Shown here piece by piece: positions 9,278 to 55,430 of a DNA stretch of 64,000 nucleotides. Numbering within the stretch: position 1 is the stretch's first letter; each line of letters begins with the position of its first letter. The stretch is from Octopus sinensis (Eukaryota). A program made the position numbers and the translations under genes. The notes beneath the pieces are model-generated. The model saw only the letters and a list, made by a program, of their open reading frames with translations, did no database searches and was not told the DNA's origin. The stretch is from contig NC_043012.1 of NCBI RefSeq assembly GCF_006345805.1, positions 39,184,001-39,248,000 on the forward strand, in the 5' to 3' direction.

Positions 9278-9949
9278 ACAAGCACAAACACATGTATACA
9301 CACACTTTTACTCACACGCATCTCTGGTGACAAAAGTATAATTAGTCAGTGATATTTATGTCTAATCATCTCCCTAGCAACAATCGTCTAATATCGATTG
9401 GAAGGCATAAAAAGAGAATGCACATTTCCCCTTCATATTTACTACATATTTCAAATTTAAAATGCTAAAACGACTCCCGTGCTCTTCTGAATTGGAGGAA
9501 GTGAGGCGGGTAGAAAAAGGGTGGCTGATGCTGCTGTCATCATGAATTACACTTAACTCAGCTGTAAGATGTAATAGTTCGCTGATTGAAGATGCATATG
9601 ATAAATGATGTGACAATTCAGCCGTGACCATCCCGTCACATACCAGATTACGTTATCTAAGGTTCTTCCGCTGTGTGCTGGTATGGCTACTGAGATAATA
9701 GCAAGTGGAAACTCAGTAGAGTGCGTCCATCATCGGATCAGACGCAAGCGAATGTACGGAAGGCTTAGATATCATAGGATGTACTTTCGTACGATGTGAA
9801 CAGTCAGGGCTTCAGATATTTGCAGGGCCATTGCTGGGTGTAAACAGTTCTGTTGGGGATAGAAACAAAAGGCTCGTTCCCTCAACAAATGGGAAAGTTT
9901 CGAGACCTGAGACAAAGGATCACTTTGACTAAAAATGTCTTTTCAATTT

Positions 9950-10203: not shown

Positions 10204-10396
10204 TATATACTAAGTAATTAAGGGTTTAGCAACGAATTGCCTCACCACACACCGAATTTAGAAATAGCAGTCAAAGAGTTATAGCTATTCTTTCTACTAA
10301 AAGGGAGATCTCAGTAAAAACACAGCACTTGAAAGGCAAACACAGACAGGTAAGAGAGAATGAAATGACGGCAATCTATCATACAATTTTAAGTCA

Positions 10397-10487
10397 CCTA
10401 CGGACGTACGTTTCGAAATTAAGTTTTAGGAAAGCATAAGAATTAGATAATCATGTCTTACCCAACTTATTTTCTCATCAGCGTAGG
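10397..10487 (-). ncRNA. Type I hammerhead ribozyme (A1)
   Basis: Minus strand: CCUACG-CUGAUGA-GAAAAUAAGUU...AACUUAAUUUC-GAAA-CGUACG-UC-CGUAGG. Perfect 6-bp stem I, full core, long stem II, palindromic stem III (ACGUACGU), GUC site; predicted cut between 10403 and 10402. Confidence 0.9.
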
Positions 10488-10979
10488 ACACTACAACTAT
10501 GAATAATTGTATATTAAATTTCGAGATACTAGAAGGCATCATCTCAACTCAGTATCAGAGCGAGCTAAAGCCGTTACCAGTATCACCAAATTCAAAATGT
10601 GAATGAAAGTTTGTGTCACCAACCCCTTCCCACCCGCGTGTAGCCAAGACAAGATGCTGTGGTCATTTACTGGAATGAAATATGGCTATCAGTAACAATA
10701 TAGGGTGAAATTAATTAATTTGGAATAATCATTAATTACACCAAGTGGATCTCGGCATGTAAAAGCCTCATTCGAGGAAAGTTTAAGTAATACTAAGTAA
10801 TTAAGGGTTTAGCAACGAATTGCCTCACCACACACCGAATTTAGAAATAGCAGTCAAAGAGTTATAGCTATTCTTTCTACTAAAAGGGAGATCTCAGTAA
10901 AAACACAGCACTTGAAAGGCAAACACAGACAGGTAAGAGAGAATGAAATGACGGCAATCTATCATACAATTTTAAGTCA

Positions 10980-11070
10980 CCTACGGACGTACGTTTCGAA
11001 ATTAAGTTTTAGGAAAGCATAAGAATTAGATAATCATGTCTTACCCAACTTCTTTTCTCATCAGCGTAGA
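10980..11070 (-). ncRNA. Type I hammerhead ribozyme (A2)
   Basis: Same motif 583 nt away; stem I UCUACG/CGUAGG keeps pairing through U-G; predicted cut between 10986 and 10985. Confidence 0.88.
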
Positions 11071-11126
11071 ACACTACAATTATGAATAATTGTATATTAA
11101 ATTTCGAGATACTAGAAGGCATCATC

Positions 11127-11422
11127 TGCAACAGCTTGGGTTTCAGAGGACCACAGCTCTTTAACATCCTCCCTAAATGCCTGAGAGACTTACATGGTGT
11201 GGATGTGGGTTTCTTTAAAACTAAACTGGATCTCTTCTTGTTGTGAGTCCCAGATGAACCTACCTCACGACAGGAGACGCGGATGCGGGCAGCAGCATCG
11301 AACTCCCTTGTTGATCAACTGCCACGTATCAGAGGTGGATTCACAAATTAGTGTAGCTCGTTCAGCGGTGGTGCCCCAGCATGGCCGCGGCCTTCGGGCT
11401 AAAACATTTTTAAGGATTTAGG
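11127..11422 (+). mobile_element. 3' end of a CR1-group LINE (ORF2 C-terminus and 3' UTR)
   Basis: Manual translation from 11127: CNSLGFRGPQLFNILPKCLRDLHGVDVGFFKTKLDLFLL*VPDEP...AASNSLVDQL, typical of the post-RT end of invertebrate CR1-like ORF2. Confidence 0.7.
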
Positions 11423-11499
<77 letters not shown>

Positions 11500-11504
11500 A
11501 TACA

Positions 11505-11576
<72 letters not shown>
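11423..11576. repeat. (TA)n microsatellite
   Basis: Direct reading; lies between the CR1 fragment and element B. Confidence 0.95.
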
Positions 11577-11578
<2 letters not shown>

Positions 11579-11846
11579 AAAAAGGGGGTCGAATTAATTA
11601 ATTGTTAATAAATTCGACCAAGCAGTATTCGGTATGTAAAGACCATTTACGGTATATTTGAAGTATTAATTTATAAAAATATGTAAAGTAAAAGAATTCA
11701 CTTTACCACACACCGAACTTTTCAGAAATAGCAGCCAAAAATTTGACTATTTCTTCAACTGCAAATAAAAGTCTCCAGACATGCATACTCAGAAAAATAA
11801 CTCACATAGGTATAAGGGAAAATGAAAGATCACATCCATACGATAC

Positions 11847-11906
11847 CCGAGGACAGTCTGTTTCTGGATTTGTGGGTAAAACGCCACTTTTCCTTCATCA
11901 GCTCAG
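11847..11906 (-). ncRNA. Type I hammerhead ribozyme (B1)
   Basis: Minus strand: CUGAG-CUGAUGA-aGGAaaaGUGGcguuuuacCCACaaaUCCa-GAAA-CAGACUG-UC-CUCGG. Stem I CUGAG/CUCGG, quasi-palindromic stem III ACAG-A-CUGU, GUC site (cut 11852/11851); first pair of stem II is an A.A mismatch. Confidence 0.8.
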
Positions 11907-12402
11907 AGATTTCTTCTGATTTAGATTTGAAAATACTAAGAATCAAACATACCCGTCCGATATCTGTAACATCGGACAAACCATGCCAGACACCCAGTAC
12001 TAGCGAATCCAAAAATACGAATGAGATCTATTATTCTCCCTGTCCACCCACGTGAGTCATAGAGCATTACATTTCTACAGAGGTAAAAACTGCAGTTCAA
12101 ATTCTTGGAGAGAAAGCATTATATTTTATCAAAAAGGGGGTCGAATTATTAATTGTTAATAAATTCGACCAAGCAGTATTCGGTATGTAAAGACCATTTA
12201 CGGTATATTTGAAGTATTAATTATAAAAATATGGTTAAAGTAAAAGAATTCACTTTACCACACACCGAAACTTCAGAAATAGCAGCCAAAAATTGACATT
12301 TCTTCAACTGCAAATTAAAAGTCTCCAGACAATGCATACTCAGAAAAATAACTCACATAGGTATAGGGAAAACAAAATGAAAGATCACATCCATTACGAT
12401 AC

Positions 12403-12461
12403 CCGAGGAAGTCTGTTTCTGGATTTGTGGGTAAAACGCCACTTTTCCTTCATCAGCTCAG
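12403..12461 (-). ncRNA. Type I hammerhead ribozyme (B2), 1-nt deletion in stem III
   Basis: Same motif ~555 nt away; reads GAAACAGACUUC, lacking one G (mutation or assembly indel). Confidence 0.65.
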
Positions 12462-13002
12462 AGATTTCTTCTGATTTAGATTTGAAAATACTAAGAATCA
12501 AACATACCCGTCCGATATCTGTAACATCGGACAAACCATGCCAGACACCCAGTACTAGCGAATCCAAAAATACGAATGAGATCTATTATTCTCCCTGTCC
12601 ACCACGTGAGTCATAGAGCATTACATTTCTACAGAGGTAAAAACTGCAGTTCAAATTCTTGGAGAGAAAGCATTATATTGTTATCAAAAAAGGGGGTCGA
12701 ATTAATTAATTGTTAATAAATTCGACCAAGCAGTATTCGGTATGTAACCATTTACGGTATATTTGAAGTATTAATTATAAAAATATGGTAAAGTAAAAGA
12801 ATTCACTTTACCACACACCGAACTTTTCAGAAATAGCAGCCAAAATTTGGCTATTTCTTCAACTGCAAATAAAAGTCTCCAGACAATGCATACTCAGAAA
12901 AATAACTCACATAGGTATAAGGGAAAAACAATGAAAGATCACATCCATCTGGAGACTTTTATTTGCAGTTGAAGAAATAGCCAAATTTTTGGCTGCTATT
13001 TC

Positions 13003-13076
<74 letters not shown>

Positions 13077-13086
13077 CATATGCATA

Positions 13087-19287: not shown

Positions 19288-19550
19288 AGTGTTTGAGGCT
19301 ATGTGACTTATGCGTGTGTTTGAGGCTATGTGACTTATGCGTGTGTGTGAGGCTATGTGACTTATGCGTGTGTTTGAGGCTATGAGACTTATGCGTGTGT
19401 TTGAGGCTATGTGACTTATGCGTGTGTGTGAGGCTATGTGACTTATGCGTGTGTTTGAGGCTATGAGACTTATGCGTGTGTTTGAGGCTATGAGACTTAT
19501 GCGTGTGTTTGAGGCTATGTGACTTATGCGTGTGTGTGAGGCTATGAGAC
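19288..19550. repeat. 27-bp minisatellite, 10 units (GAGGCTATGWGACTTATGCGTGTGTKT)
   Basis: GAGGCTATG starts at 19295, 19322, 19349 and so on to 19538, exactly every 27 bp. Confidence 0.95.
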
Positions 19551-41350: not shown

Positions 41351-42367
41351 GTTTCTTTATTAGCCACACGGGGATGTACACAGACGGGACAAATTACAAG
41401 GTAGAGCTTTTCTTTTGGGGGATAGAAAAGGTGTTTGTTTTTCGATCAAAAGGGATCGTAAAAGGAAAGAAAGAGGAAAACAAAAGCAAAAAAGTGGGGG
41501 GATAAAAGGAAAAAGAAAAAATCGATCAATATGGATTGTTATCACAGAAATGTCAATATAAAGTGTAAAGAGGAGGACAGGTGAGGCTTGCCCGTGGAAA
41601 GAAAAGCCTACGGAAAAGACCACGGTAACCTCGGCCAATGAAGTCACATGTTATTTTTTTTTACAAATAAGCAACTCTCTGTATCAATTTTTACGGTTCA
41701 TAGGATCATAGTCAAGGTGGCTTCGTCAATCATACGTGCCATCCTTGCTACATTCACCCATCTTTTTTTAAAACATTCACTAGACAAAACTTGCTTCTCT
41801 ACTCTCACTTTCCTCTTCAAGTGATACTTGAAGAAGTTGATGAGAGATTGACCAGAGAGGAAAGTGTTTGTCTCTAATCCTTTCAGGCGCGTCCACCAGA
41901 TACATTCTTTCGCCATAGCCACAAGTATGATAAAAATAGCTCTTCCTTCCCGTTTGAAGGAAGGAGGCGTGACGATATTAACGATAGACTCGGCTGATAA
42001 ACCGACACGTCCCACACGTGACAGCAGTCGTTCGACATAAGCCCACAGGTCGGAGATTGTTGGACACTGCACGATTGCGTACAGAACGGTTTCGTCGCTC
42101 TGCCCGCATCTCGGGCAGGTCGGCCCCGTGTTTCTTGAGCCATGCCTATAGAGCTTATCCCGAACGGGTAGCGCCTCTCGGTAGCACCGCCAGGCCAGGG
42201 ATCTCTGGAAGTTGTCCCGAAAGTCGTCTCAAACAGGCGGGTCAGGTATTCCTCGTCGACGCCCAGGTTCGCCACAAGATCGTTGTCGTACCTCCCCTCC
42301 ACTAATCCCCTATAGAATGCTTGGGTTGTGTTGAAGTCACTCAAGGTCGACCCGGGACGGCATAGTT
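41351..42367 (-). mobile_element. 5'-truncated L1/Tx1-like LINE, copy 1
   Basis: ORFs 41698..42072 and 41883..42344 encode frameshifted parts of a zf-RVT-type C-terminus; pyrimidine-rich 3' UTR ending AATAAAGAAAC. Confidence 0.85.
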
Positions 42368-42381
42368 AGATAGATAGATAT

Positions 42382-43775
42382 GTTTCTTTATTAGCCACAC
42401 AGGGCTGCACACAGATAGAACAAATTACATGGTAGAGCTTTTCTTTTGAAGGTTTAAAAAAAAAAAAAAAAAAAGGAAGGGGGAGTTTCGATCAAAAGGG
42501 ATCGTAAAAGGAGAGAAAGAGGACAAAAAAAAGGGGGGGTTAAAAAAAAAAAAAAGGGGGGGAGAGGAAAAAAAAGTTTACCAATAGGGATCGTTATCAC
42601 AGAAATGTCAATATGAAGTGTAAAGGGGAGGACAGGTGAGGTTTACCCGTGCAAAGAAAAGCCTACGGAAAAGACCACGGTAACCTCGGTCAATGAAGTC
42701 ACATTTTATATTTCTTTTTTTTTTTTTTTTTTTTGCAAATAAGCAACTCTCTGTTTTCGATTTCTGGGTTCATAGGACTATGCTCAAGGTGGCTTCGTCA
42801 TTCATACGTGCCATTCTTGCTACATTCACCCATCTTTTTTTAAAACATTCGCTAGACAAAACTTGCCTCTCTACTCTCACTTTCCTTTTCAAGTGGTACT
42901 TGAAGAGTTGATGAGAGATTGACCAGAGAGGAAAGTGTTTGTCTCCAATCCTTTCAGGCGCGTCCACCAGATACATTCTTCGCCATAGCCACAAGGATGA
43001 TGAAAATAGCTCTTCCTTCCGTTTGAAGGAAGGAGGCGTGACAATATTGACGATAGACTCAGCTGATAAACCGACTCGTCCCACACGTGACAGCAGTTGT
43101 TCGACATAAGCCCACAGGTCGGAAATTGTTGGACACTGAACGAGTGCGTGCAGAACGGTTTCGTCGCTCTGACCGCATCTCGGGCAGGTCGGCCCCGTGT
43201 TTCTCGAGCCGTGTCTGTAGAGCTTATCCCGAACGGGTAGCGCTTCTCGGTAGCACTGCCAGGCCAGGGATCTCTGGAAGTTGTCCATGGGCCTGGCCCG
43301 AAAGTCGTCCCGAACAGGCGGGTCAGGTACTCCTCATCGACGTCCAGGTTCGCCCCGAGCTCGTCGTCGTACCTCCCCTCCACTAAACCCCTATAGAATG
43401 CTTTGGTTGTGTGAAGTCACTTAAGGTCGACCCAGGACGGCAGAGTTGCTTGAGAGCAACGCGACACTCGCGGTGCCATTCGCCCTTCCTCGGCCTCTTT
43501 TTGATCCACGACTGCAGTTCGGTCATGGAGACGAGCTGCGGGAAAGCGTGCCTCACAAACGGCGACCACACCTGTTCACCGTCGTCTACATAGAGCCAGA
43601 GATGTCGCAGTCTCAGCGCGTGTCTGCGCATCATCAACCACGGCATGCCCAGCCCTCCTTTTAACGGGTGTTGACAGCAAATGGATCGCCTGACCATCGG
43701 GACGCATCCTTTCCACAAGAAGCGAAAGAGGATGCGTTGTAGTTTGGTGATGGTAGGGTCGGGACAAGGTACGAC

Positions 43776-54883: not shown

Positions 54884-54975
<92 letters not shown>

Positions 54976-55039
54976 GGGGGAGAGAGAGATTTTATACACA
55001 AATACACACGCGCGCATATAGAAATATATACATACATAC

Positions 55040-55097
<58 letters not shown>

Positions 55098-55165
55098 GGG
55101 GGAGAGAGAGATTTTATACACAAATACACACGCGCGCATATAGAAATATATACATACATACATAT
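54090..55165. repeat. Recent ~524-bp tandem duplication including microsatellites
   Basis: Unique block ~54150-54362 is repeated at ~54674-54885; the short block GATTTTATACACAAATACACACGCGCGCATATAG occurs three times. Confidence 0.9.
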
Positions 55166-55430
55166 ATATATATATTATATATTATATATATATATATAGT
55201 GTATATATATATATATATAATAGTAATGTATATTTACTCCGATTTAAAGCGACATTTATCTAAAGAATTGAGTGAAAAATAAAGTTAAGCTAACTCCCAT
55301 AAGATTCGAACCTACATTTCAACACAAACATAGCACCTTGCACATCGTGGGTTCGATTCTAATCAGTGGTAGCTCACCATTTTTTCGGTCAATTGTTTCG
55401 ATAAGAATCGGTTTCAATCAGAGTATGTAT

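Follow-up and report, generated by a model that had tools for sequence, protein, structure and literature searches.

The locus described here raises the question of what kind of template gives rise to a tandem array of ribozyme-carrying units, and which enzyme copies it into the chromosome. The window, i.e., the whole stretch of DNA that was analysed, comprises 64,000 nucleotides of Octopus sinensis (contig NC_043012.1), whose genome measures 2.7 Gb, and coordinates given without a locus label refer to it. Array B consists of 2.5 tandem non-coding units of 553–555 nt, placed in a (TA)n microsatellite and accompanied by a 56-nt inverted end. The tract between the (TA)n target repeats on the left (11423–11576) and on the right (13007–13081), to which no strand is assigned, is built wholly of copies of the unit. 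The tandem units lie on the minus strand. Unit B1 (11577–12129, 553 nt) has at its left end start site 1, the putative 3′ end of the copied RNA; B2 (about 12130–12684, 555 nt) has many indels and is 96% identical to B1; and the partial unit B3 (12685–12948) covers unit positions 1–263 and stops 12 nt before the cut site of the ribozyme. The first-pass annotation of this sequence had placed the units within the same bounds, and the array is real, as the exact 25-nt cut junction occurs in 253 genome copies and a control pattern in none. The annotation was right about the tandem units and missed two other features, the footprint of Penelope-type elements (PLEs) and a plus-strand piece at 12948–13003. 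This piece is an inverted copy of unit positions about 148–203, either a short second arm or a fold-back; as the second arm of array B, it starts at about unit position 149, outside both main start sites. B2 shows 15 gaps against the reference unit, compared with an average of 2.5–2.6 for the pieces of the family, which suggests consensus errors in the assembly.

Array B belongs to a young dispersed family. With B1 as the query, at least 164 matches were obtained from the 39 of 1,425 candidates that were scored. The units of the family measure 553–562 nt with a GC content of 0.33–0.34, and the 44 loci examined are dispersed, flanked by (TA)n and without terminal repeats; no LTR, PBS or PPT was seen in the family. 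B had been considered an element independent of its neighbour A (10208–11132, minus strand), which has a 583-nt unit in 1.6 copies with hammerhead cores at 10481 and 11064. This view is not borne out, since the two are identical in 192 of 265 aligned columns over B positions 9–288 (score 122; highest of 200 shuffles, 50), which makes A a distant homolog of B. Taken alone, the part from position 200 onward scores 33 and is not significant against the same shuffle maximum. A motif common to A and the whole superfamily lies at 11705–11739 on the minus strand, and again at 12257–12290 and 12810–12844, and is a candidate recognition site for the reverse transcriptase (RT). It occurs in 2,276 exact copies in the genome (control 0), spread over further families, and no ORF of at least 150 aa resembling an RT was found in 30 loci that contain it.

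The hammerhead of B1 (11846–11907, minus strand) is of type I, with a palindromic stem III. Its 6-bp stem I pairs 11907–11902 with 11851–11846, and the core CUGAUGA occupies 11901–11895. The second core strand, GAAA (11864–11861), is followed by CAGACUG, then by U16.1 at 11853 and C17 at 11852, with the predicted cut at 11852/11851. The hammerhead of B2 (12402–12462, minus strand, core 12456–12450) is short of one stem III base, as had been claimed, and B1 contains the only complete hammerhead of the array. In the 123 ribozyme segments of the family, taken from the 44 loci, all five core and stem features are found together in 98, the cut junction is exact in 117, and stem III is full in 114. 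The ribozyme is found on one strand only. The A·A apposition reported at the base of stem II in B1 (11894/11865) is genuine and moreover represents the family consensus, with the 5′ A in 118 and the 3′ A in 114 of the 123 segments. This pair, 10.1–11.1, adjoins the core and is A·A in B and also in family C, a relative with about 75% identity to B along the whole unit, and G-C in families A and D.

At the Rfam gathering threshold B gave zero matches, and the fold of the ribozyme taken alone is no more stable than that of shuffled sequences (z 0.41), so the assignment as a hammerhead rests on the core motif and on the comparison between families. Across A, B, C and D, stem I is altered on both sides and stem III is always palindromic, a pattern of sequence change that we read as selection on the ribozyme fold. 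The G10.1–C11.1 pair beside the core is described as strongly conserved in hammerheads (PMC4209133, PMC3088659), so the A·A of B may cripple the cleavage. In the part of PMC3088659 drawn on here, a natural U·U is the one mismatch recorded at this pair, and A·A does not appear. If hammerheads with the conserved A·A do cleave, they would widen the tolerated core. Other type I hammerhead families with different palindromic stems III, some of them in inverted pairs, were seen near PLE loci (L108, L109, L113, L132, L139, L196 and L079).

A type I hammerhead in the tandem unit, the non-coding sequence, the low GC content and the dispersed distribution support the earlier reading of B as a retrozyme. 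Cervera and de la Pena (2020; PMC7229834) define non-LTR retrozymes, hypothesise that tandem cDNA arises from circles, and name PLEs as candidates for the copying. As far as the metazoan elements are described there and in the preprint of Li, Clavereau and Pollet (2026; bioRxiv 10.64898/2026.07.22.740005), they resemble B in being tandem repeats that lack coding sequence, are low in GC and have in each unit one hammerhead of type I, the stem III of which is short and palindromic. Their units are given as 170–400 nt in the former and 51–972 nt in the latter source, compared with 553–562 nt in B, and B differs in the A·A at the base of stem II and in a 7-nt stem III palindrome. The two fixed starts, head-to-head arms and array-private variants of B, described below, are absent from the retrozyme accounts in the parts of the two sources consulted. 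The preprint likewise proposes that PLEs mobilise retrozymes, and links these to the pLTRs of PLEs; for B, no autonomous PLE with a matching pLTR was found. A highly paired circle and a ribozyme that is off in the monomer, both of which are predicted for B, are shared with plant LTR retrozymes and viroid-like circles. B differs from these in its type I rather than type III hammerhead, in the lack of any LTR, PBS or PPT seen, and in having the ribozyme on a single strand. B is thus a non-LTR retrozyme of a known kind and the family itself is new; its cutting and its circular RNA are predicted. A literature search without subscription papers and preprint supplements returned no paper on the B family or on within-array variants as a test of a circular template.

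The way in which B is inserted points to the enzyme. The insertions sit in (TA)n, and their starts are flanked by TA-rich repeats. The outer ends of the arrays, on the 3′ side of the RNA (n = 67), lie near unit position −10 in 27 cases, at 77–93 in 25, at 255–275 in three and elsewhere in 12. Two fixed start sites about 95 nt apart account for 52 of the 67 ends, a census biased by the choice of 39 of the 44 loci as best full-length matches; the five loci picked by the motif show the same start sites in eight of nine ends, and the ninth is cut by the edge of the locus. The outer ends of A fall at the homologous sites in 37 of 40 cases (17 + 20). Starts circularly permuted along the unit had been predicted for such arrays, and free permutation is ruled out by this concentration of ends at two PLE-type sites. 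The sequence between start site 1 and start site 2 forms an optional tail (11577–11665, minus strand in B1) that contains a hairpin at 11587–11619. Head-to-head two-armed arrays are present at 23 of the 44 B loci, and where both ends of a two-armed locus lie at main sites, one of each is used in 9 of 9 cases in B and 10 of 11 in A. A minor group of ends was noticed at unit positions 262–267, 10–14 nt from the cut site (L029, L032 and L041), and B3 ends at 263 as well.

PLEs are reported to occur as partial tandems and inverted copies and to have an optional tail (PMC8557442). In the anole PLE, two internal RT starts bound the tail, both DNA strands are cleaved and extended, and a protein dimer is predicted (PMC11167929). 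B insertions carry this PLE signature of two starts, partial tandems, inverted arms and a tail. As described in the parts of PMC8557442, PMC11167929 and PMC4209133 used for the comparison, EN+ PLEs (Neptune-type, Poseidon PAc) further resemble B in their microsatellite targets, 5′-truncated inverted copies, an additional base following A9, and a type I hammerhead downstream of which two internal starts bound the optional tail. B differs from them in the lack of an ORF, in the whole element being the repeating unit with up to 8.6 units per arm, and in a tail of about 95 nt rather than 30–40 nt. It is very probable that B is a retrozyme with a PLE footprint. B is no autonomous PLE itself, as the insertion contains only unit copies and no ORF with RT and GIY-YIG domains.

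Candidate enzymes are present in the genome in the form of (TA)n-flanked ORFs of 775–883 aa with RT and GIY-YIG domains, found among the PLE candidates scored (150 of 5,029 and 150 of 7,916). In one ORF of 781 aa, the RVT_1 match reaches 28.9 bits, just below the cut-off, and GIY-YIG is above it; the CX4CXXC linker of this ORF suggests the Neptune clade, judging from part of PMC8557442. It belongs to a young Neptune-like PLE at L106:636-5480 (G000:C1), in which the RT-EN ORF is overlapped by a 479-aa ORF1 read in a different frame. Some 110 nt upstream of the 3′ end of this PLE stands a degenerate core resembling that of a hammerhead, and the optional tail of the element, about 40 nt long, contains a hairpin. 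No autonomous PLE sharing sequence with the superfamily was found in 68 + 30 PLE 3′ flanks by BLAST and by a nucleotide profile built from 10 superfamily segments. The matches obtained in these flanks are separate insertions behind TA tracts (L098/L115, L091/L116, L214 and L208). To the eye, the main Neptune-like family resembles the shared motif at its 3′ end, but this likeness obtained no score.

The nature of the template can be approached through the variants within and between arrays. For this purpose, 174 unit pieces from the 44 loci were aligned, columns near gaps were masked, and the comparison was made on the 135 pieces in which 250 or more columns were called. The substitution distance in B is 0.0032 between units of the same arm (198 pairs), 0.0019 between opposite arms (75 pairs) and 0.0160 between different arrays (8,648 pairs), i.e., units of one array, opposite arms included, are 5–8 times closer than units of different arrays. 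The same order holds inside one young B subfamily (0.0011 within and 0.0059 between arrays) and in A (0.0084, 0.0064 and 0.0265, respectively), and the own array is among the nearest neighbours for 100 of 123 units. In arrays with at least three covering units, 160 variant cases were counted, of which 64 occur in all units (many of these being uninformative subfamily markers), seven in all but one, one in part of the units and 88 in a single unit. Eight variants are private to one array and yet present in every covering unit, for example in 6/6 units at L031 and at two sites in 6/6 units at L037, in both arms.

The far ends of the arms, which extend up to 8.6 units, are spread along the unit. 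Two of 67 are no more than 10 nt from the cut site, which is close to the uniform expectation, and eight of the 67 values (561–562) are a product of the piece-size cut-off; no pile of ends, such as run-off at the cut site would leave, was seen there. Because the units are alike within an array and array-private variants occur in all units, each array, as far as can be read from these variants, derives from one monomer sequence and passed a single-monomer bottleneck. Together with the far ends, this supports the claim that each array was copied from one monomer, and rolling reverse transcription accounts for the bottleneck most simply. Both start sites lie 190–285 nt downstream of the cut, and therefore a cleaved linear monomer could give no copy that crosses the ribozyme. 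It follows that the template of such copies was a circle, an uncleaved multimer or a monomer that was re-entered.

The main rival, which we consider unlikely, retains the same element and enzyme and takes the uncleaved multimeric transcript of an existing array as the template, with a ribozyme that is weak or acts later. The A·A at stem II and the predicted off-fold would agree with it, and it accounts equally well for the pair of start sites, the inversions and the random position of the far ends. The anole PLE, for which unprocessed RNA is reported as the main substrate and cleavage as dispensable (PMC11167929), counts against a circle, and the Xenopus retrozyme dimers, described as uncleaved in eight of nine cases and cleaved in one (bioRxiv 10.64898/2026.07.22.740005), count against an active ribozyme in B. 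Through multimers alone, however, a new mutation cannot become array-wide, nor can arrays lengthen, and most long arrays have array-wide variants of their own. Just six variants are polymorphic inside two arrays; five of them lie in the indel-prone positions 240–249 and none is at the same unit index in both.

Array B itself provides one observation that a single circle does not explain. A G>A change at position 171 (reference numbering) is found in B1 and apparently in B2, and is absent from B3 and the inverted piece. This difference, like the seven all-but-one cases, could be a conversion tract under another model, favoured at the DNA level by the 2026 preprint (bioRxiv 10.64898/2026.07.22.740005), in which a copy of 1.x units is inserted and the array grows by unequal crossover or conversion. 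Such growth also yields identical units in each array, but we judge it improbable, as divergence in the longest arrays is among the lowest, partial cases number one in 160, and opposite arms resemble each other as closely as adjacent units do. Our best reading remains rolling reverse transcription, in which a borrowed Penelope-type enzyme probably copies one predicted monomeric RNA circle several times.

The predicted folding of the RNA is compatible with such a circle. The B1 circle folds at −171.9 kcal/mol, compared with −115.8 ± 4.8 kcal/mol for 25 shuffles, and the linear monomer has a z of −7.1. In 4/4 B circles, the active ribozyme fold is predicted to lie 5.1–5.7 kcal/mol above the minimum; in the set of folded circles, one C unit gave no core. 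Stem III alone can form 3 bp, and the duplex between two copies is predicted at −6.9 kcal/mol, compared with −9.8 for A. According to PMC4209133, as far as its account was consulted, such hammerheads cleave in multimers, where they act as dimers, and stay inactive in monomeric circles, and the predicted folds of B fit this rule.

Long-range pairing is predicted to bring together both ends of the monomer, which is also what a further model would use: here the template would be a cleaved linear monomer, and the RT, on reaching the 5′ end, would jump back to the 3′ end of the same molecule, making it a non-covalent circle. Although its single template would explain the uniformity, this model is very improbable. 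Template jumps usually add or lose bases, whereas the junctions are exact in 117/123 segments without added bases, and far ends do not accumulate at the cut site as run-off would make them.

In the joint folding of 13 units of A, B and C by RNAalifold, 54 pairs were obtained, eight with two-sided changes, and the 10 units of B and C gave 146 pairs, again eight with two-sided changes. The families are few and mutually related, so the covariation is at most suggestive. The first set includes a predicted helix conserved in A, B and C that joins the shared motif to the tail (11706–11718 with 11627–11640, minus strand), and start site 2 lies inside the enclosed region (11627–11718). A conserved anti-core strand that would block the ribozyme, proposed from the folding of B and C, was not adopted: none of the 8 single-circle folds contains it, and a lone covarying site (10 of 13 C copies) is its basis.

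Junctions of the unit are also present in independent data. Two runs from two studies (X12 and X19) each contain one 597-nt contig that comprises a whole unit variant with an overlap of about 30 nt and spans both the unit junction and the cut junction. A third run (X6) contains a 509-nt contig and two 113-nt alleles that close a similar loop. These runs are only guessed to be RNA, and the contigs would be the same for a circle or a tandem; they show junctions in independent data, not expression. In four runs guessed to be RNA, 9320–9887 was left uncovered and A was represented only by short pieces that had diverged. The contigs bear on whether the tandem structure or its uniformity is an artefact of assembly or polishing, a notion that would draw on the indel-rich B2 and on a locus known from the assembly alone. 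We find it scarcely credible, given the 44 loci with distinct flanks and fixed phase and the independent contigs across the unit junction. Polishing to the family majority would, moreover, remove array-private alleles rather than make them.

The proposed mechanism would proceed as follows. The array would be transcribed on the minus strand, and two hammerheads are predicted to pair their palindromic stems III and to release a monomer of about 560 nt. Long-range pairing would hold the ends of this monomer, and a host ligase, as proposed in PMC7229834, could close the circle. A PLE RT-endonuclease would then nick (TA)n and prime cDNA inside the RNA at either of the two sites observed, 190 or 285 nt downstream of the cut site. 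By crossing the ligated junction repeatedly, the RT could produce the several units of one variant that are found in each arm. Both DNA strands would often be primed, one per site, which would generate the head-to-head arms seen in the arrays. In the most specific version, a dimeric Penelope-type RT-endonuclease nicks both (TA)n strands, and two RTs roll round one hammerhead-made circle from the two sites; we put this forward tentatively, as somewhat less probable than an even chance. If true, each two-armed array would be a clonal record of one circular RNA molecule and would be direct evidence, read from the genome, of the circle-to-DNA step so far hypothesised for animal retrozymes. Circles of animal retrozymes are known, and both the circle as an integration template and the copying enzyme are hypotheses in the account of PMC7229834. 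The B family offers a genomic test of the circle template through its fixed starts, their reciprocal use by two arms and the array-private variants. It also supplies the substrates for an in vitro rolling assay, namely the 560-nt circle, the start-site helix and candidate intact PLE ORFs.

Several other repeats were observed beside the family. The 3′ end of a young LINE, 97% identical between L029:2481-3400 and L038:2068-2700 and containing a Cys/His-rich C-terminal ORF, joins B at unit position 411–412 in two of the 44 loci, which belong to different subfamilies, in the same sense as the B RNA. From its motifs, we take this LINE to be Tx1-like, and it is possibly a site-specific LINE that targets the retrozyme. 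Relatives of about 70% identity are present in the window at 41974–42217 and 43044–43326. A LINE ORF2 C-terminal fragment with one in-frame stop, presumably CR1/L2-like by motif, lies at 11126–11330 and abuts the far end of A2. Elsewhere in the window, a 27-nt minisatellite occupies 19289–19550 (9.7 copies, 95%), and a perfect 122-nt duplication is located at 54932–55175.
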